The notes under the pieces: model-generated
Databases searched by the model: none
Told to the model about the DNA's origin: nothing
Seen by the model: the letters and a program-made list of their open reading frames with translations, nothing else
Assembly: GCA_050239825.1 (NCBI GenBank)
Contig: JBFXGO010000040.1
Coordinates: 1 to 19,674 of the forward strand
Source: a bacterium
Lineage (GTDB): Bacteria > Hydrothermota > 32-111
Length of the DNA stretch: 19,674 nt
Direction: 5' to 3'
Made by a program: the position numbers and the translations under genes
Shown here: in pieces, positions 1,264 through 19,568 of the stretch
How positions within the stretch are numbered: the stretch's first letter is position 1
Layout: each line of letters begins with the position of its first letter

Positions 1264-4200
1264 ATGACAAGAAACCTTATACCGACATTCATTTTAGAGA
1301 ATCTGAAAAACTCCAACAAAAGCGGAAGTTTTTTCGGATATGTGATAAGCGGAGACATAGTCAATTTCACCCCGGCAGTTGAAAATCTGATGAAAGAGGG
1401 CAAGGGCGGAGCCGAATACATGGGCAGGATGCTCAATTCAACATTCGGAAAAGTGACGGACATTGTCTATTCCCAAAAAGGATTTATAACCAATTTTGCG
1501 GGAGATGCTTTCACTGCAATTTTTTTCAATGAAAATTCCGCAGACGATGTTTTAAAAATAGCACAGACTCTCATAAATGTCTTTTCTGATTATAAAGACA
1601 GCAAGAAGATAAAACTCCACATCAGACTTGGAATTTCAAGCGGAGTTATAGATTGGGGAATTGTGGGAAGAGAAAATGAAAAATCTGGATACTATTTTAA
1701 GGGCGAAGGAATAAATTCAGCAGTCAGAATACAGCAGAATGGCGAATGCGACACAATTCAGTTTGACAAAAGGTTTAGGTCGCAGTTGTCCAAAGATGTA
1801 AAAGTAAAAGAAAGCAATTCATTTTTTTATATAGACCCGATAAAAACAGATAAATTCATCTGTGAAAAGATACACAGAACAAGGAATGAAAACAACAGGT
1901 TCTTTCCTGAAATTTTGAGCGGACTTGCTTCTGACGGAGAATTCAGGCAGGTTATTCCCATCTTTGTAAGATTCCCTTTTGACACAGGCAAAACAGACAT
2001 TGAAAAAATAGCGGAAAATCTCATAGAGAATGCAAGAAAGTTTGAAGCATATCTGAACAAAATTGATTTCGGAGACAAGGGAGGCATAGCCCTTGTGATT
2101 TTCGGAGCTCCCTATGCCCATGAGGATATGATAGACAGAGCAGTTCAATTTTCTCTTGCAGTCAAAGAGGAATTGAAAGAGTATACAATTTCAGTTGGTA
2201 TAGACTACGGAGTCTCCTATGCAGGATTCATAGGCAGTTCATTCTGGCATGAATATACTGTTATCGGAGACATTGTCAACACTTCTGCGCGGCTGGCGAC
2301 CCTGACAGATGACAGAATTTCCGTATCGTCGAGGATAAAGGAGGAGAGCAGGGATTTCGCCTTCAAGAAGGTTGACTCAATAAAACTCAAGGGAAAGACC
2401 GAGAGCGTTGATGTTTTTTCTGTTTCAAAATCCAAGGAGAGATTCAAGGGCGATTTCATATCCCCGTTTGTCGGCAGGGAGAAGGAGACATCCGATATCT
2501 CAAAATTCATAGCAAAGTGCATGAAGAATTCTTCTCACTGCATGATAAATATAATCGGAGAGAGCGGCACAGGAAAGACAAGGCTTGCCTTTGAATCCGT
2601 CAATATGCTGAATATGAAATACTTTTACTCCAATTCCGACCCAATCATCAAAGAATCAATGTTTCCCTTCAAGGTCTTTCTGTCCTCTATGATGCTTTTC
2701 AACCTGTTTGATACCGATTCCGTAAAGAGGGAGATGATAGAAAAATTCTGCGAAAAGAACTTCACTGAAAACTGCGCAAGATTTTCAGCATTTTTAAAAT
2801 ATTTTTTCATTCAGGAGGAAGACTCATCCCTTAAAAACCTTTCCGGAAAAGAGAAGCTTGAGGGAATATTCTTTGTTATAAAGGAAGTGCTCATAATAAA
2901 TGGCAGACAAAAGCGCATAACATACATATTTGATGATGCCATGTGGCTGGATGACGAAAGCGCAGAGTTCATAAAATTTTTAATAAGGGAAAAAGAGCTC
3001 TCATCCTCCATATTCATGTTCCTTTTCAGAGAGGAAAGCCGAGCGACAAAAAAACTTGAATCCGCAGAAGCCGAGAAATTCACAGTCAAGCTCGTTAATT
3101 TTCAGGAGAACGGAGCGAAAGATTTCGTCGAACAGTTTTTCGGAAAATCCGTCTCAACCCCTCTGGTATCCCTCCTTTGGAAGAAGAGCGAGGGGAATCC
3201 GCTCTTTCTTGAACAGCTCTCGCTTCACCTTGTCGACAACAACATGATAACATCGGACGGAGAATTCCTGATTTTGAAGAGCGATGATTACGAGATTCCT
3301 TCAAACATCGACAGACTGATTGTCTCGCGTTTAGATTCGCTTTCCGCCATAACGCGCGACGGGATACAAAAAGCATCAGTCATAGGAAAAGAATTTGAAG
3401 TGGTGCTTCTGAAAAATCTTCTCAACAGCAAGAAGCTTCAAATAGTGCTTAACGAAGGAGAGAAAAACAAGATAATATCGCTTCTCTCAAATCAAACCGC
3501 ATTTTTCAGGCATATACTTTTGCATGAAATTGCGTACAAAATGCAGTTTGAAAACACTCTGGTAAGGCTTCACGGAAGAATCGCACAACTTTATGAAAAG
3601 CTCTTCGCAGAAAACCTCCTTCCTTACTATGAAACACTCTACCACCATTACAGGAAGAGCAAAAATAAGAAGAAAACACTCTATTACCTGAAGAAGACAA
3701 TTGAAAAAGACATAAAGGGATACTCAAATGAGAATGCCCTCTCTCTGATGGATGAACTTCTTGAACTAAATATATCGCAGTCAGACAGAAAGGAGTACTC
3801 TCTCAAAAAGGGAGAGATACTGAGACACATAGGCAGATATGAACAGGCGCTCAAACTCTACAAGAGCATGCTGAAAGAGCGCGGCAACAGAAAATATGAG
3901 GGAGAGATAAGAAAGGGAACCGGAGAGGCATTGTGGGCTATGGGCAAATATGAGGATGCCTTAAAGGAGTATGATAAAGCCCTCCTTCTGCATTCAAAGA
4001 CAAAAAATGAAAGGGGAACAGCGGAGATACTTGAGAAGAAAGGAATGGTATTCTACAACAGGGGCGACTACAAGCAGGCAACCTCCGAGTTTAAGAGTGC
4101 CCTTCACTACTCTAAAAAGAATAAGAAGATGACAAGCTCAATTCTCTCCAATCTCGGCCTCGTTTTATACAGACAGGGAGAGTATGACAAGGCAATGACA

Positions 4201-4911
4201 TTTTATACGAGGTCACTCAAAAATGCCCGGTCAACGGAGAATCTTAATGACCAGGCGCTCTTTCTTTTGAGAATCGGTCTTATTCATTTTGAAAAACAGG
4301 ATTACAAAAAGGCTTTGGAATGCTATTTCAAATCTTTGGAAATAAACAGCAGAATCGGAAACAGGAGAAATGAAGGTGTGACTCTGGGAAACATAGGCAC
4401 TGTCTACAATGACATGGGAGAAGGCGAAAAGGCGCTTGAATACCTGCATAGAGCCATTAAAATAGATAGAGAGATAAACAATCTGGACAATGAATCCATA
4501 GTGCTCGGGAATCTCGCCAACATTTATGCTGTCAGGGGAGATTATATGATGTCTCTGACCTATTATATGGAGGCCCTTGAGGTTGATAAAAAAATCGGCA
4601 GTAAGTGGTCTGAAGCCATAGACCTCGGCAACATAGGACAAATGTATAAACTGCAGAAAAATTACGCAATGAGCGACAAACACTTCAAACTCTGCATAGG
4701 AATAATCAGGGAGATGAATGCCAGATATCCTCTTTCGCACTTTCTTCTGCAGAGGGCGCAACTTCAGCATGACATGAAGAATTTTTCCCTATCAATGAAA
4801 CTTGCCGATGAGGCGCTTGAGATAGCAAAGGAATTAAAGAAAGAGAAGATGATAAAGAACGCAGAAGACCTTATAAAGGTTCTGAAAAAGAAGATCGGAA
4901 AAAACAAATAA
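1264..4911 (+). CDS. Tandem class III adenylate/guanylate cyclase + STAND (AAA_16-like) ATPase + TPR protein (ADCY10/sAC-like)
   Basis: Cyclase 1: SGDIVNFT, FAGDA, IRLGISSG. Cyclase 2: NKIDFGDKG, FGAP, HEYTVIGDIVNTSARL, KLKGK. ATPase: FVGREKE, Walker A GESGTGKT (from 2557), Walker B-like YIFDDAMWLD, SEGNPLF. Many C-terminal TPR-like repeats (LSNLGLV, LGNIGTV, LGNLANI, LGNIGQM). Confidence 0.92.
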   Translation: MTRNLIPTFILENLKNSNKSGSFFGYVISGDIVNFTPAVENLMKEGKGGAEYMGRMLNSTFGKVTDIVYSQKGFITNFAGDAFTAIFFNENSADDVLKIAQTLINVFSDYKDSKKIKLHIRLGISSGVIDWGIVGRENEKSGYYFKGEGINSAVRIQQNGECDTIQFDKRFRSQLSKDVKVKESNSFFYIDPIKTDKFICEKIHRTRNENNRFFPEILSGLASDGEFRQVIPIFVRFPFDTGKTDIEKIAENLIENARKFEAYLNKIDFGDKGGIALVIFGAPYAHEDMIDRAVQFSLAVKEELKEYTISVGIDYGVSYAGFIGSSFWHEYTVIGDIVNTSARLATLTDDRISVSSRIKEESRDFAFKKVDSIKLKGKTESVDVFSVSKSKERFKGDFISPFVGREKETSDISKFIAKCMKNSSHCMINIIGESGTGKTRLAFESVNMLNMKYFYSNSDPIIKESMFPFKVFLSSMMLFNLFDTDSVKREMIEKFCEKNFTENCARFSAFLKYFFIQEEDSSLKNLSGKEKLEGIFFVIKEVLIINGRQKRITYIFDDAMWLDDESAEFIKFLIREKELSSSIFMFLFREESRATKKLESAEAEKFTVKLVNFQENGAKDFVEQFFGKSVSTPLVSLLWKKSEGNPLFLEQLSLHLVDNNMITSDGEFLILKSDDYEIPSNIDRLIVSRLDSLSAITRDGIQKASVIGKEFEVVLLKNLLNSKKLQIVLNEGEKNKIISLLSNQTAFFRHILLHEIAYKMQFENTLVRLHGRIAQLYEKLFAENLLPYYETLYHHYRKSKNKKKTLYYLKKTIEKDIKGYSNENALSLMDELLELNISQSDRKEYSLKKGEILRHIGRYEQALKLYKSMLKERGNRKYEGEIRKGTGEALWAMGKYEDALKEYDKALLLHSKTKNERGTAEILEKKGMVFYNRGDYKQATSEFKSALHYSKKNKKMTSSILSNLGLVLYRQGEYDKAMTFYTRSLKNARSTENLNDQALFLLRIGLIHFEKQDYKKALECYFKSLEINSRIGNRRNEGVTLGNIGTVYNDMGEGEKALEYLHRAIKIDREINNLDNESIVLGNLANIYAVRGDYMMSLTYYMEALEVDKKIGSKWSEAIDLGNIGQMYKLQKNYAMSDKHFKLCIGIIREMNARYPLSHFLLQRAQLQHDMKNFSLSMKLADEALEIAKELKKEKMIKNAEDLIKVLKKKIGKNK

Positions 4912-6780: not shown

Positions 6781-7967
6781 TGCGGATACTTCTCATAACC
6801 CCTTTTCCGCTGGTGGCATCCCAGAGCGGCATTTACACAAGAGACATAGCGAGATTTTTCTCATCCGCCGGTAATGAAGTTATGGTTGTTAATTTTGACA
6901 ACAAAGAGACTCTGTACACGGAGCCTTTCAGGATACACACGATTCTTTTCGGAAAAGAAGACAGCAAGGTAATGTTCCCCTGTTTTACAACCCACCCCCA
7001 CACGGATTTTACTTTTTCAAAGATTACCAATTCCCAGCTCAACAATTACATACTGTTTGCAAGGGAAAAAATCAAGAATATCATACATGAGTTTGGTCCG
7101 GACATTATACACTCCCAATACCTCTGGGTTTCAACAGAGCTGGCAAGCGAAGCATCAGGCAAGATTCCTCTTATCTGCACCAGCTTCGGAAACGAGAACG
7201 CCGCAATGGCTGAGGATCCAAGATATGCGGATTATGTCAAATATGCGGTTGAAAAATCCCGTTTCATCATAGCTCCTTCAAAGCAGATAGAGCTTCAGCT
7301 GAGAGGAGCTTTCAAGCTTGATGCAATCAAGCTTAAACTCATATATAGAGGATATGATGATGACATTTATAAATTCATTGACGATAATTTTGAAATTTAC
7401 AGGGAATATTTCGGAATAAACGACAAATGCAAGCATATAGTGCTGTTTTCCGATCCGATAAATTACATGAAAGGAATAGATGTATTTCTCAAATCCGCAG
7501 TAAAGATGATTGAAAAGCGCGATGACATCTGTTTTGTAATCGTGGGTAAGGGAGATTTTTCCAAAGAAATTGAAACTCTCTGCGAAACTTACAAACAGAA
7601 CATCCTCTATCTCCCCTCAATCACCGATGAGGAGAAGCCGTCGCTTCTTCATATTTCCGACATAACGGTCATTCCATCGCGCTTTGAACAGTTCGGGACA
7701 AATGCTCTTCAATCTCTTGCTATGGGCACTCCTGTAATATCATCCAATGTGGGCGAACTCCCGTTTTTCGTCAATAATGAGAATGGAAAAGTTCTTGAAG
7801 ATATCTCCGAAGAGTTTCTCTCAACCGCAATAGAAGAGATTCTTGACAAAAATTTAAAATCAAAAGTCAGGTTTTTCTGCCACCAGTACGCAAGCAGAAA
7901 CTACTCAAAAACATCAGGCTTGATGCTACTGCAGAAACTCTACGATTACGCAGTCAGCGAGAAGTGA
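6780..7967 (+). CDS. Glycosyltransferase family 4 (GT-B fold) protein
   Basis: MRILLITP N-terminus, PDIIHSQY, KGID, IVGKG, PSRFEQFG...LAMGTPVISSNVG; TGATG coupling to pfkA. Confidence 0.88.
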   Translation: MRILLITPFPLVASQSGIYTRDIARFFSSAGNEVMVVNFDNKETLYTEPFRIHTILFGKEDSKVMFPCFTTHPHTDFTFSKITNSQLNNYILFAREKIKNIIHEFGPDIIHSQYLWVSTELASEASGKIPLICTSFGNENAAMAEDPRYADYVKYAVEKSRFIIAPSKQIELQLRGAFKLDAIKLKLIYRGYDDDIYKFIDDNFEIYREYFGINDKCKHIVLFSDPINYMKGIDVFLKSAVKMIEKRDDICFVIVGKGDFSKEIETLCETYKQNILYLPSITDEEKPSLLHISDITVIPSRFEQFGTNALQSLAMGTPVISSNVGELPFFVNNENGKVLEDISEEFLSTAIEEILDKNLKSKVRFFCHQYASRNYSKTSGLMLLQKLYDYAVSEK

Positions 7968-7979
7968 AGGAGGAGTTAT

Positions 7980-9152
7980 ATGGAAATTAAAAAAATCGGA
8001 ATTGCAGGGAGCGAAACAAAACAAGATGTACTTGTCAAAGTGGAGCCGGGCCAGAACGGCATTGAAATTAAAATCACTTCCACTCTCGGAATGCTCTATT
8101 ACACCCAGATAGCCTCATCCGTCGATGAAACAGTGAGCAGGTATGGAATTGCAAATGCTTTGATAACAGTCATAGACAGCGGAGCTCTGGACTATGTAAT
8201 CAGAGCGCGCACAGAATCTGCAATCCTGAGGGCATCGCAGGAAATAGAGAAAAAATTCTACGCTGACAAGAAGGATGCGGAGTATAAACTCAGAAGAAGC
8301 AGATTGTATCTTCCGGGGAATAATCCATATCTGATGCAGGGAATAACATACTATGGAGCTGACGGAACAATACTTGACTTGGAGGATTCTGTGCCTCTTG
8401 AAGAGAAAGATTCTTCAAGAATCCTGGTTGCATACGCATTGAAGAACATAGATTTCGGCAGGTCTGAAAAGATGGTGAGAATAAACTCTATTGATGTATG
8501 CGGAGCCGAGGACATTGAAGCTGTTCTTCCTCAGAAGCCTAATATCATTCTTGTTCCGAAGTGCGAGACAGAGTATGATGTTAAAAAGGTTGTTGAAATT
8601 TTGGAGAAAAATGAGAAGAGGTTCAATCTTTTAGGATATCAGGCAAAGATAATACCTATAATTGAATCTGCGAAAGGCGTCGAAAATGCCTATGAGATAG
8701 CCACAGTATCTGAGAGAACCGTTGCCCTGGCATTCGGAGCCGAAGATTATACAGTCTCTCTCGGGGTGAAGAAAACCGCTGGAGAGGAGGAGCTCTTATT
8801 CGCCAGACAATCAATTGTAAATGCCGCGAAGGCCGCAGGAATACAGGCTTCGGATACAGTTTATTCCAACATAGAGGACCTTGAAGGACTTAGAATAAGC
8901 ACGGAAAAATCAAAGGTTCTCGGTTTTGACGGAAGAGGGGTTATTCATCCCTCGCAGATAGAGATTGTTCATCAGGTATTCATACCCTCCGATAAAGAGA
9001 TTGAAGAGGCAAATGAGATAATCGATGTTTTCAACAAAGCAAAAAAAGAGGGCTCCGGAGTTTTGAAACACAAGGGCAAGATGATAGACATGCCTATAGT
9101 ATTGAGGGCTAAACGGATTCTTTCCGTCGCCAAAACAATAAATCAGGAGTAG
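7980..9152 (+). CDS. citE: Fusion of a citrate lyase ACP (CitD/gamma)-like domain with citryl-CoA lyase (CitE/beta, HpcH/HpaI aldolase family)
   Basis: Residues ~1-87 are CitD-like (IAG...DV.V.VEP...GIEIKITS...VIDSGALDYVIRARTESAILRA). Residues ~103-390 are CitE-like (RRSRLYLPGNNP, ILDLEDSV, MVRIN, VPKCE, IIESAKG, FGAEDY, GFDG..IHPSQ, GKMIDMP). AGGAGG RBS. Confidence 0.9.
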   Translation: MEIKKIGIAGSETKQDVLVKVEPGQNGIEIKITSTLGMLYYTQIASSVDETVSRYGIANALITVIDSGALDYVIRARTESAILRASQEIEKKFYADKKDAEYKLRRSRLYLPGNNPYLMQGITYYGADGTILDLEDSVPLEEKDSSRILVAYALKNIDFGRSEKMVRINSIDVCGAEDIEAVLPQKPNIILVPKCETEYDVKKVVEILEKNEKRFNLLGYQAKIIPIIESAKGVENAYEIATVSERTVALAFGAEDYTVSLGVKKTAGEEELLFARQSIVNAAKAAGIQASDTVYSNIEDLEGLRISTEKSKVLGFDGRGVIHPSQIEIVHQVFIPSDKEIEEANEIIDVFNKAKKEGSGVLKHKGKMIDMPIVLRAKRILSVAKTINQE

Positions 9153-9154
9153 AG

Positions 9155-10693
9155 ATGTTTTGCAAGAATAAAGTCAACAGAGAGATTCCGGACAAAATAG
9201 ACGGAAGAGAGCTTAAACCTTTTTCAGGCGCTTTCAGTGTGTCTCCGCAGGGGAAAAAATTTGCTTCAAAACTTTCCGTATCAAAACCTGCCGACGACAA
9301 GCTTTGCAAAAACCTGAGAGAGGCTCTCGAAAGGGCGCATGTCAGGGACGGCGCAACAATCTCCTTCCATCACCATCTGAGAGAGGGAGACGCAGTTGTG
9401 AATATGGTTATTGATGAAATAGCGCGGATGGGCATCAAGAATGTCACGGTCTTCCCGACAGCACTTTTTGCCGTGCATGAGAAACTTATAGAGCATATCA
9501 AATCAGGAGTCATATCGAAAATTGAAGGTTCACTGAACGGACCCATCGGAAGGTTCGTCTCTGCAGGAAATATGAAGAGTGTATGCGTTTTGAGAAGCCA
9601 CGGAGGAAGAGTCAGAGCGGTAGAATCCGGAGATATAAAAATAGATATAGCTGTAATAGCTTCTCCGACAGCCGATGAATACGGCAACTGCTCAGGTCTT
9701 ACAGGAAAATCAGCATGTGGTCCTCTGGCATACGCTGACATTGACTCACGGTATGCTGATAATGTCATTGTAATTACGGACAATCTCGTAAAATATCCTC
9801 TTGTCCCCCATTCAATTCCCTCCACAAGGGTTGACTCTGTAGTCAATGTGGAATCCATCGGAGACCCTTCGCTGATTGTCACCGGCACTATGAGGATAAC
9901 AAAATCCCCCACCCGCCTTCTTATTGCAAAATACTCTGTGGATTTTCTCGACATAATCGGTTATATCAAAAATGACCTCACATTCCAGACCGGAGCCGGA
10001 GGAATCTCTCTGGCAGTTACTAAGTTCATGGCGGATAGGATGAGGGAAAAGCAAGTCAAGGCAAAATTTATAAACGGCGGAATAACAAAATTCGCAGTCG
10101 ATATGCTTAAAGAGGGACTGACTGATTCTCTTATAGATGTCCAGTCCTTCGACCTTGAAGCAATAAAATCAATGAGCGAAGATAAGAGGCACTTTGAATG
10201 TTCAGTTGACGAATATGCAAATTACTTTTCAAAGGGATGCTTAGTAAACAAGCTTGATGTGGGCTTTCTCGGAGCCACTGAGGTTGACATCGACTTCAAT
10301 GTGAATGTGAATACTCACACAGACGGACTACTGCTTCACGGAATAGGCGGACATCAGGATGTGGCGGCGGGATGCGACATAACTATGATAACAATACCGG
10401 CTTTCAGAAACAGGCTTCCGATAATTCTTGATTCCGTCACCACCGTCACCACCCCGGGCGAGACTGTCGATGTTGTGGTGACTGAGATGGGAATCGCCAT
10501 AAATCCTCTGAGAAAAGATATTATCGAAAAAGCAAAGAGCATCAGATCAATTCCTATCATGGAAATAAACGAAATGAAGGATAAAATCGAAAAGATCACA
10601 GGAAAGCCCGACAGACCCAAGAGGAAGGAAAGAACGGTTGCTTTAATCGAATACAGGGATGGCACAATAATAGACACAGTAAGAGAGGTTTGA
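9155..10693 (+). CDS. citF: Citrate lyase alpha subunit / citrate CoA-transferase
   Basis: TISFHHHLREGD, LRSHGGRVRAVESG, GKSACGPL.YA, FQTGAGG, DVQSFD, LGATEVD.DFNVNV, GIGGHQD, TTPGETVDVVVTE, EYRDGTIID; directly after citD-citE. Confidence 0.95.
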   Translation: MFCKNKVNREIPDKIDGRELKPFSGAFSVSPQGKKFASKLSVSKPADDKLCKNLREALERAHVRDGATISFHHHLREGDAVVNMVIDEIARMGIKNVTVFPTALFAVHEKLIEHIKSGVISKIEGSLNGPIGRFVSAGNMKSVCVLRSHGGRVRAVESGDIKIDIAVIASPTADEYGNCSGLTGKSACGPLAYADIDSRYADNVIVITDNLVKYPLVPHSIPSTRVDSVVNVESIGDPSLIVTGTMRITKSPTRLLIAKYSVDFLDIIGYIKNDLTFQTGAGGISLAVTKFMADRMREKQVKAKFINGGITKFAVDMLKEGLTDSLIDVQSFDLEAIKSMSEDKRHFECSVDEYANYFSKGCLVNKLDVGFLGATEVDIDFNVNVNTHTDGLLLHGIGGHQDVAAGCDITMITIPAFRNRLPIILDSVTTVTTPGETVDVVVTEMGIAINPLRKDIIEKAKSIRSIPIMEINEMKDKIEKITGKPDRPKRKERTVALIEYRDGTIIDTVREV

Positions 10694-10694
10694 T

Positions 10695-11756
10695 ATGGCA
10701 AAAATTCTCGCTATAAACCCGGGAGCCACTTCAACAAAGGTTGGGCTCTACGAAAATGACAGAGAAATTTTCAACGAGGCTGTGCGTCACTATAAGGATG
10801 ACATACAGAAGTTTTCCAAAACAATTGACCAGCTTGACATGAGAGTCTCCCTGATAGAAAAATTCCTCAGTGATAAAAACATACCCCTTGATTCTATAGA
10901 TATTTTCGTAGCGAGAGGCGGACCTTTCAAGGCAATGAAGTCAGGCACCTATGCGGTAAATGCAAAAATGATCAATGATGTTAAAAACGAGAGGGTTCTC
11001 GCCGACCATGTGTCAAATCTCGCTTGCCTGATAGCCGATAAACTTGCAAGAAAAGGACAGCCCAAGTATATTGTAGACCCTGTATCTGTAGACGAGTTTG
11101 ACGATATAGCTAGGGTGTCCGGACTCAAAGAGCTTGAAAGAAAATCACTTTCACATGCATTGAATATGAAGATGGTCGCAAAGAGATGGGCAAAGGAGAA
11201 CAATGTGGATTATTTGAAATCATCCCTTATAGTAATCCATCTCGGAACCGGAATATCGGTTTCCGCTCATAAAGACGGAAGGATGATAGATGTCAACAAT
11301 GCCAATGATGAGGGCCCCTTTTCTCCTCAGAGATGCGGCACTTTGCCGGTTACACAACTTGCGAAATTAGCATCAAGCGGCAAATATGACTATAGCGCAT
11401 TAAAAAAGATGCTCACCTTTCAGGGCGGATTGTTCTCTTATATGGAGACAGACAGTGTTCCGGAAGTTATAAATCTGATGGAACAGGGTGACAGCAAGGC
11501 AAAACTGATACTTGAAGCCATGATGTATCAGGTTTCAAAAGAGACGGGAGCAATGGCGACAGTTCTCTATGGCAGAGTTCATGCGATTATTATCACAGGC
11601 GGCATCGCATATAACAGAGTGCTCACAGAGATGATTAAAAAGAGAACATCATTTATTGCCCCCGTATTCATTTACCCCGGCGAAGACGAAATTCTTGCCC
11701 TTGTCACCGGAGTGTTGAGAGTGATTAACAATGAAGAGAAGGAGCTTGAGTACTAA
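10695..11756 (+). CDS. buk: Butyrate (branched-chain carboxylate) kinase
   Basis: ILAINPGATSTKVG, ARGG, HVSNL, IVDPVSVDE, HALN, HLGTGISV, DVNNA..EGPFSPQRCG, IIITGGIA, YPGEDE. Confidence 0.95.
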   Translation: MAKILAINPGATSTKVGLYENDREIFNEAVRHYKDDIQKFSKTIDQLDMRVSLIEKFLSDKNIPLDSIDIFVARGGPFKAMKSGTYAVNAKMINDVKNERVLADHVSNLACLIADKLARKGQPKYIVDPVSVDEFDDIARVSGLKELERKSLSHALNMKMVAKRWAKENNVDYLKSSLIVIHLGTGISVSAHKDGRMIDVNNANDEGPFSPQRCGTLPVTQLAKLASSGKYDYSALKKMLTFQGGLFSYMETDSVPEVINLMEQGDSKAKLILEAMMYQVSKETGAMATVLYGRVHAIIITGGIAYNRVLTEMIKKRTSFIAPVFIYPGEDEILALVTGVLRVINNEEKELEY

Positions 11757-19184: not shown

Positions 19185-19568
19185 ATGAAAAAAGTTGCAT
19201 TTTTCGTGGCAGTTTTACTGCTGGTCATTTTAGGAATTTATGCAGATTCTCCTCTTGGGGGAGGAATAAACAAAAATCCGTTGAATTCTATAAATCTTTT
19301 CAAGCCTGATTCACAATCCTATTCTTTTTCGACTGGTTTTCTTTCAACCGGAAAGGCGTATCAGTCCTACTCACTTTTCAACGCCGCTTATACAACAAGT
19401 ATAAGCAGAAATCTCACACTTTACTATGATCTATCCTACCTTAATTCGAATCTCAAACAGAACTACATCAGGGGCGGACTTGGATTATCCTACGGAAAGG
19501 ATAATTTCAGATTTTCTCTTTATATGAACAGAGTCTTTGATAAGGACGATTATGACATACTTCACTGA
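19185..19568 (+). CDS. Hypothetical exported protein (127 aa, beta-strand rich)
   Basis: AAGGAG RBS; signal peptide MKKVAFFVAVLLLVILGIYA; alternating aromatic/polar strands. Confidence 0.8.
   Translation: MKKVAFFVAVLLLVILGIYADSPLGGGINKNPLNSINLFKPDSQSYSFSTGFLSTGKAYQSYSLFNAAYTTSISRNLTLYYDLSYLNSNLKQNYIRGGLGLSYGKDNFRFSLYMNRVFDKDDYDILH

Follow-up and report, generated by a model that had tools for sequence, protein, structure and literature searches.

Citrate lyase is the textbook case of an enzyme that relies on a covalently tethered, coenzyme A (CoA)–like arm and on three dedicated accessory enzymes, and its canonical mechanism and the roles of CitX, CitG, and CitC are set out in passages of PMC10798043. 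In a 19,674-nucleotide stretch of bacterial DNA (the window; contig JBFXGO010000040.1 of assembly GCA_050239825.1, lineage Hydrothermota; 32-111), a gene at positions 7980..9152 of the forward strand encodes a 390-residue protein that fuses a CitD-like, acyl carrier protein (ACP)–like domain to a CitE-type lyase, and the gene that follows at 9155..10693 on the same strand encodes CitF (citrate lyase alpha subunit, or citrate CoA-transferase; 512 residues). The locus shares its CitD-like, CitE-like, and CitF modules with the classical CitDEF systems (Escherichia coli citCDEFXG, Klebsiella pneumoniae, and lactic acid bacteria; EC 4.1.3.6), and the CitD fold motifs G10, D16, GALD, R77, and E79 are retained. 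Unlike those systems, it has a lysine in place of the prosthetic-group serine, its CitD-like domain is fused to CitE, and its genome is without citC, citX, and citG. On the basis of sequence comparison and structure prediction, the locus probably encodes a citrate lyase without a covalent prosthetic group, which would use free acetyl-CoA and citryl-CoA and would keep the carrier-like domain as a docking module.

The most similar described arrangement is that of Ignavibacterium album, in which a CitE–CitD fusion lies next to CitF (IALB_1147/IALB_1146); parts of PMC3362086 term the pair an ATP-independent citrate lyase and speculate about citrate fermentation or an unconventional reverse tricarboxylic acid (TCA) cycle. 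The two-gene architecture is common to both organisms. The sections of that account that deal with the pair mention neither the absent serine nor the absent citC, citX, and citG, and Ignavibacteria-type relatives read R-S-D where the window reads K-Q-D. A route through citryl-CoA synthetase (CCS) and citryl-CoA lyase (CCL) is also named there (PMC3362086). Relatives of CitE with free CoA thioesters as substrates are described in portions of PMC3832036, and the free CoA ester use proposed here would be shared with such members of the TIM-barrel lyase family as human CLYBL, the malyl-CoA/beta-methylmalyl-CoA lyases, and RipC/Ccl. Unlike the lyase of the window, which scores best to citE, these enzymes have neither a CitF partner nor an ACP-like domain. 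In the CCS/CCL route of Hydrogenobacter, citrate is activated with ATP, and the proteins involved belong to the citrate synthase and succinyl-CoA synthetase families. The two-step cleavage through free citryl-CoA proposed here would resemble that route, except that activation would occur by CoA transfer, without ATP. A search of the full-text literature, which covers few subscription journals, found no paper on a citrate lyase that lacks the serine or citC, citX, and citG.

Lysine at the Prosthetic-Group Position

The codons from position 7980 read ATG GAA ATT AAA AAA ATC GGA ATT GCA GGG AGC GAA ACA AAA CAA GAT GTA, giving the N-terminus M-E-I-K-K-I-G-I-A-G-S-E-T-K-Q-D-V, with AAA (Lys) as codon 14 at 8019..8021. 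The ACP-like domain comprises residues 1–88 (7980..8243). It matches PF06857, the CitD/MdcC carrier family of Pfam, over residues 8–85 (E 1.6e-18; 67.2 bits against a cut-off of 25.1), and the NCBIfam citD profile TIGR01608 with 83.6 bits (cut-off 63.5), residues 1–90 corresponding to profile positions 1–91; residues 1–97 alone score 87.3 bits. Both scores exceed the curated cut-offs and place the domain in the CitD family. The fusion of this domain in frame to CitE, asserted in an earlier note made from the letters of the window, is borne out by the open reading frame (ORF) at 7980-9152 and its Pfam matches to ACP and HpcH_HpaI.

The same note had proposed, without a database search, an alignment that puts Lys14 on the attachment site, and MAFFT reproduced it: A9-G10-T-L-E-S14-G-D16 of the CitD annotated in the citCDEFXG region of E. 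coli K-12 lies without gaps over A9-G10-S-E-T-K14-Q-D16 of the window. Ser14 of the canonical Klebsiella and E. coli CitD is taken here to be the residue that carries 2'-(5''-phosphoribosyl)-3'-dephospho-CoA. The five closest relatives (80–85% identical; P0002-P0005 and L006) all read K-Q-D, and the probable source sequencing run spans 7700-10581 at word depth 22 with zero differences, which together rule out a sequencing error at 8019-8021. The sole independent run starts at 8070, so codon 14 lies outside its coverage. Ser11 and Thr13, which the earlier note had named as attachment sites that would speak against its reading, can be set aside, since neither is conserved among the close relatives (S/A/Q/K/R/T/N at position 11; T/S/A/G/N/D at position 13). 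Separately, a low-depth contig from a second study (word depth 3.44) has an extra A after 8249, within an A-run of the linker, and three substitutions over 8070-8587; misassembly or strain variation is the likely cause.

Relatives were collected in two ways. In a word-seeded protein search, 7071 of 8000 candidates matched at E ≤ 1e-10, and the best 120 of these, which were inspected, all bear PF06857 and PF03328. A scan of one genome per species found at least 593 relatives, some of which may not be fusions because the search patterns lay in the CitE part; the best 80 were kept, and an ACP-like N-terminus is present in 78 of them, the other two being cut by contig ends. Among the groups that appear in their record titles are WOR-3, Bacteroidota, Ignavibacteria, Acidobacteriota/Terriglobia, Gemmatimonadota, Cloacimonadota, and Planctomycetota. 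The alignment combined 121 proteins, the 80 loci, and 29 loci from a phylum sample described below into 230 rows, some of them probably duplicates, and 227 remained once three rows without the N-terminus had been dropped.

The canonical serine is found in none of the 227 rows. Position 14 is Arg in 155, Lys in 70, His in one, and Ala in one, so that Lys or Arg occupies it in 225/227. Position 15 is more variable (Ser 171, Gly 36, Ala 12, Gln 6, Cys 1, Arg 1), and position 16 is Asp throughout (227/227). On a FastTree phylogeny of these rows, built with the hairpin columns excluded, the presence of Ser15 changes at least eight times, and seven of the changes are forced by well-supported branches. 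What the alignment conserves is thus a positive charge where the serine used to be, and the neighboring serine is optional.

The first five stand-alone CitDs that were compared (from E. coli, G034, and G020, together with P0122 and P0123) carry E-S-[SG]-D without exception. The 97-residue domain, used as the query of an exhaustive HMMER search, gave 451 cluster representatives at E ≤ 0.001; among the best 150 of these, a selection biased toward the query, 127 are stand-alone (≤135 residues), with Ser at position 14 in 76, Lys or Arg in 39, another residue in 10, and a gap in two. Conversely, at least one N-terminally fused protein, P0125, reads S-N-D, with Ser at position 14. Because stand-alone forms with Lys/Arg14 and a fused form with Ser14 both exist, serine loss and CitD–CitE fusion are, as far as these sequences go, separable and independent traits, and the lysine or arginine is not peculiar to fusions.

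Accessory Genes in This Genome and Its Relatives

The genome that contains the window (2.1 Mb in 67 contigs, 98.97% complete) has a single PF06857 match, the fusion itself. For CitG and CitX (PF01874, PF03802), no match was obtained in it at E ≤ 1, and for CitC (PF08218) the best score was 17.2 bits, below the cut-off of 20.9, from matches that are only nucleotidyltransferase-like; E. coli, the control, was positive for all three. The holo-ACP machinery formed by CitG and CitX was therefore not detected in this genome. A separate citD with citC, citG, and citX elsewhere, which the earlier note had pointed to as a possible supplier of the ACP, is likewise not found.

The same pattern recurs among relatives. 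Of the 80 fusion-bearing genomes, 50 were searched whole, hand-picked such that long contigs were favored and rows other than R-S-D were kept. No CitG, no CitX, and no CitC above the cut-off (TIGR00124) was found in 48 of the 50, and CitC matches of just 17–24 bits occurred in eight further genomes. In the two positives, G020 and G034, citXG and citC form a single cluster, and roughly 3 kb upstream of it each genome has a second, stand-alone citD (93 and 96 residues) followed by citE and citF; the stand-alone CitD reads AGSFESSD or AGTFESSD, and the fusion lies on another contig. Within one genome, the serine-bearing CitD travels with its loaders, whereas the fusion does not. Among 401 genomes drawn evenly from the phylum of G034, 33 have PF06857, 32 of them in fused form only (frames of 397–455 residues), and CitG was found in none of these 32. 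Four of the searched genomes combine Lys14 with the absence of Ser15 (that of the window, G001, G011, and G042), and all four are without CitG, CitX, and CitC.

Because Lys occupies the serine site, no second citD is present, and no CitG, CitX, or CitC scores above the cut-offs, the known prosthetic group, judged by gene content, cannot be made or loaded in this genome. Free CoA thioester use then becomes the most economical inference. In the model put forward here, the two polypeptides (7980-9152 and 9155-10693) would work without the covalent 2'-(5''-phosphoribosyl)-3'-dephospho-CoA arm. CitF would move CoA from free acetyl-CoA onto citrate, giving citryl-CoA and acetate, and the CitE domain would split citryl-CoA into oxaloacetate and acetyl-CoA; the acetyl-CoA would be recycled, and free acetyl-CoA would thus act catalytically. 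The overall reaction, from citrate to acetate and oxaloacetate, is probably that of the classical enzyme. CitG and CitX, which synthesize and load the arm, and CitC, which re-acetylates it, would not be needed. The ACP-like domain, held on a flexible linker, would serve as a docking or assembly module, with the Lys14 hairpin, the loop after Ser34, and the GALD motif seated on the CoA-binding C-terminal part of CitF. It is in this sense that we infer free CoA ester use, citrate as the substrate, and the role of Lys14. In work by Dimroth and Eggerer in 1975, the alpha and beta subunits of the Klebsiella enzyme, once isolated, reportedly accepted acetyl-CoA and citryl-CoA.

Constraint and Predicted Docking of the Carrier-Like Domain

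Between the window and L006, the relative closest to it among the genomes, pN is 0.099 in the ACP part, close to the value in the CitE part (0.107), and the approximate dN/dS of the ACP part, about 0.07, indicates purifying selection. In window numbering, the residues G10, D16, S34 (S35 in E. coli), G68-A69, R77, and E79 do not vary across an alignment that contains E. coli CitD. Mean pairwise identity is 0.38 in the ACP part, 0.51 in the CitE part, and 0.16 in the linker, which comprises residues about 89–102 (8244..8285). The AlphaFold2 model of the fusion (mean pLDDT 88.5, pTM 0.70) has pLDDT values of 83–91 over residues 1–80 of the ACP fold and 74 over residues 81–90, and values below 50 at residues 89–100 are consistent with a flexible linker. 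Lys14 is located in the loop between strands 7–9 and 17–23.

Complex formation was predicted for CitF (14-row alignment) and fusion residues 1–95 (16-row alignment) with a riding CoA. The model has an ipSAE of 0.64 (runs 0.62, 0.64, and 0.66), against 0.00 for the best control; the calibration mark is reached by 116/157 solved complexes and by 2/215 mismatched pairs, user alignments and a riding ligand being outside that calibration. The runs have at least 88% of contacts in common, and partner pLDDT is at least 85. In the predicted interface, residues 14–15, 35–43, and 67–71 (the GALD motif) of the ACP-like domain meet CitF residues 389–390, 419–421, and 481–489, and Lys14 contacts CitF residue 419. 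Its neighbors R418 and R420 do not vary among 14 CitFs of the fusion type. A phmmer search of the Protein Data Bank (PDB) with the ACP part found no relative, only four weak unrelated matches (E ≥ 0.07), and a profile that includes the ACP part retrieved CitE-like chains only; because no CitD chain was found in the PDB, the docking result is unlikely to be a memory of a solved complex. The prediction supports docking of the Lys14 loop and the GALD motif of the ACP-like domain on conserved CitF residues.

Together, these data suggest that the ACP-like domain is conserved and probably functional, rather than vestigial. The earlier note had described it as a vestigial or structural domain that cannot be loaded. 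The second part of this description agrees with Lys14 and the missing loader genes; vestigiality is contradicted by the dN/dS value, by Lys or Arg14 in 225/227 rows, and by the modeled docking on CitF. Similarly, the ACP-independent lyase proposed there is probably independent of the prosthetic group, but not of the ACP-like domain.

The same interface can be read in another way. The domain could be a noncovalent swinging carrier, in which CoA or dephospho-CoA is held and a salt bridge from Lys/Arg14 to a phosphate of the cofactor replaces the phosphodiester; together with the two CitF arginines, this bridge would prevent the cofactor from leaving the enzyme while it cycles from the CitF site to the CitE site and back. 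The free interchange of Lys and Arg at a position that is positively charged in nearly every relative suggests an electrostatic rather than a covalent role, the linker that bears the domain is poorly conserved and modeled with low confidence, and in the complex model Lys14 touches CitF 419 between invariant R418 and R420. However, the model gives no position for CoA, and the arginine pair also occurs in E. coli CitF and hence does not set this clade apart. An electrostatic tether of this kind, with Lys/Arg14 at the hairpin tip between the arginines clamping the CoA phosphate and the resulting shuttle making CitG, CitX, and CitC dispensable across many phyla, is considered unlikely, as is the noncovalent carrier in general.

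Substrate, Genomic Context, and Implications

The CitE-type (citryl-CoA/citryl-ACP lyase) TIM-barrel domain (8286..9152) matches HpcH_HpaI over residues 106–324 (E 2.1e-57). Its best-scoring family is citE (TIGR01588; 294.8 bits over residues 103–386, below the equivalog cut-off of 443.4), and the RipC and haloarchaeal malyl-CoA lyase profiles, at 166.8 bits (cut-off 375) and 65.6 bits (cut-off 500), place it in neither of these equivalogs. CitE catalytic-motif columns, among them L132-D133-L134-E135-D136, E229, and E255, are invariant in 16 fusions, and the PDB profile matches of the domain are CLYBL, malyl-CoA lyases, and CitE-like proteins (5VXC, 5UGR, 4L9Y). CitF, which starts 3 bases past the fusion stop, is assigned by PF04223 (E 3e-161) and by TIGR01584 (598.4 bits, above the cut-off of 501.45), with PDB matches 2HJ0 and 1XR4; the CitF of a distant relative also passes the citF equivalog cut-off.

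Neighboring ORFs were clustered over 81 sources (the 80 loci and the window). CitF adjoins the fusion in 72 of them. An isocitrate/homoisocitrate-type dehydrogenase and a fused isopropylmalate isomerase (IPMI)–type aconitase are each neighbors in 35/81, an HDIG protein of ~180 residues in 27/81, and a PrpD-like protein in 23/81. A conserved cluster of the fusion and CitF with such neighbors is present in many phyla, for example at L029:1-12517, L066, L051, and L010. None of the four neighbors lies in the window; homologs of three of them occur elsewhere in the genome, as an Iso_dh gene (51–54% identity), an HDIG protein (41–42% identity), and two large/small pairs of the aconitase family. Citrate synthase (PF00285) has no match in this 98.97%-complete genome, and the only HMGL-like match is a 597-residue OadA/PycB-like protein, not a LeuA-type synthase. 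The loci concerned in this set of dehydrogenase, aconitase-family, and HMGL-like genes are C12:662-1777, C12:60312-62113, C22:46480-48252, and C10:1806-3599. Because both synthases are missing, the CitDE–CitF lyase may be the only link of citrate to C4 and C2 units in this organism, as far as gene content indicates. A CitMHS-family transporter is present in the genome, and no DASS-family transporter was found in it. Replacement of citrate synthase as a general explanation for the pair was rejected, as 40 of the 50 fusion genomes have citrate synthase.

A quite improbable alternative is that the substrate is a related compound (citramalate, malate, or an itaconate-derived or methylcitrate-type CoA ester), or that the pair runs mainly in the condensing direction, rather than cleaving citrate. 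The sub-cut-off citE score, the additional match to RipC, the PrpD-like neighbor, and a genome that has no citrate synthase or LeuA-type synthase yet still keeps Iso_dh and two aconitase-family pairs are consistent with this possibility. The citF equivalog cut-off, passed both in the window and in the distant relative, argues for citrate instead, as do citE as top-scoring family for the lyase part and the clustering with aconitase and isocitrate-type dehydrogenase genes. This alternative is further disfavored by the citrate synthase found in most fusion genomes, which makes the pair no general replacement, and by the equilibrium of citrate lyase, which favors cleavage at physiological concentrations.

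Still less credence is given to covalent loading that involves a different residue or a different cofactor and is carried out by an enzyme with no relation to CitX and CitG, such as a phosphopantetheinyl transferase, a lysine-modifying ligase, or an enzyme of the pathway of the HDIG neighbor. Nonhomologous enzymes would be invisible to the family searches, and the HDIG protein stands beside the fusion and CitF in a third of the clustered sources and has a homolog in the genome of the window; a look-up of this neighbor in a protein-cluster atlas returned generic HD-domain clusters only. Against such loading, no hairpin Ser or Thr is conserved among Lys-type relatives, and Ser15 is dispensable, being absent from 56/227 rows with at least eight changes of state. 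Covalent modification of the lysine itself is disfavored because Lys and Arg interchange freely, Arg being unusable by lipoate or biotin ligases. Finally, a decaying remnant or an inactive gene, which the loss of the defining serine and of all accessory genes might suggest, is highly implausible given the low dN/dS, the matching pN values of the ACP and CitE parts, the residues that are invariant up to E. coli CitD, an architecture kept across many phyla, and the modeled docking on CitF.

Several observations weigh against a lyase that uses free CoA esters and docks its carrier-like domain on CitF. Family searches are blind to an unrelated loading enzyme. No completeness values are reported for the two sets of comparison genomes (50 and 32), so single absences are weak and only the overall pattern counts. 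In 171/227 relatives, a serine stands one residue later (R-S-D), where it could be modified in those lineages, though not in the window. The CitE part falls short of the citE equivalog cut-off (294.8 against 443.4 bits), and its substrate could be a related acid. dS is saturated (1.46), which makes dN/dS approximate, and the complex model may reflect family likeness, is silent on CoA, and was judged by a calibration without riding ligand or user alignments.

The fusion and CitF genes are located inside a long same-strand gene run of the window. A Shine-Dalgarno-like GGAGGAG, read from the sequence as the ribosome-binding site, lies at about 7969..7975 on the forward strand, upstream of the ATG at 7980. 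The run includes phosphofructokinase and GT4 glycosyltransferase genes upstream and butyrate kinase and PorV-like protein genes downstream. The butyrate kinase gene (10695..11756, forward strand; TIGR02707, 434.9 bits, above the cut-off of 289.1) starts 2 bases after the CitF stop, leaving a 1-base spacer. Its membership in the system is uncertain; an ORF of the same size is found at this place only in the closest relative, L006, and it is not a conserved neighbor elsewhere. The genome also has two PTA_PTB genes, on contigs other than that of the butyrate kinase. Farther away in the window, 1264-4911 encodes a 1215-residue protein with an adenylate/guanylate cyclase domain, an AAA_16 ATPase, and a long TPR array, and the ORFs at 166-1221 (351 residues) and 19185-19568 (127 residues) match no Pfam family and have no NCBIfam match near any curated cut-off.

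More generally, the serine-less form of the carrier-like domain recurs across uncultured lineages, among them WOR-3, Bacteroidota, Ignavibacteria, Acidobacteriota, Gemmatimonadota, Cloacimonadota, and Planctomycetota. If free CoA esters are indeed used, pathway predictions that make citC, citX, and citG a requirement for citrate lyase function would go wrong in these groups, and the part played by the ACP-like domain would have to be reconsidered. In that case, ATP-independent citrate cleavage in unconventional reverse TCA schemes, as raised for I. album, would become directly testable with two recombinant proteins.

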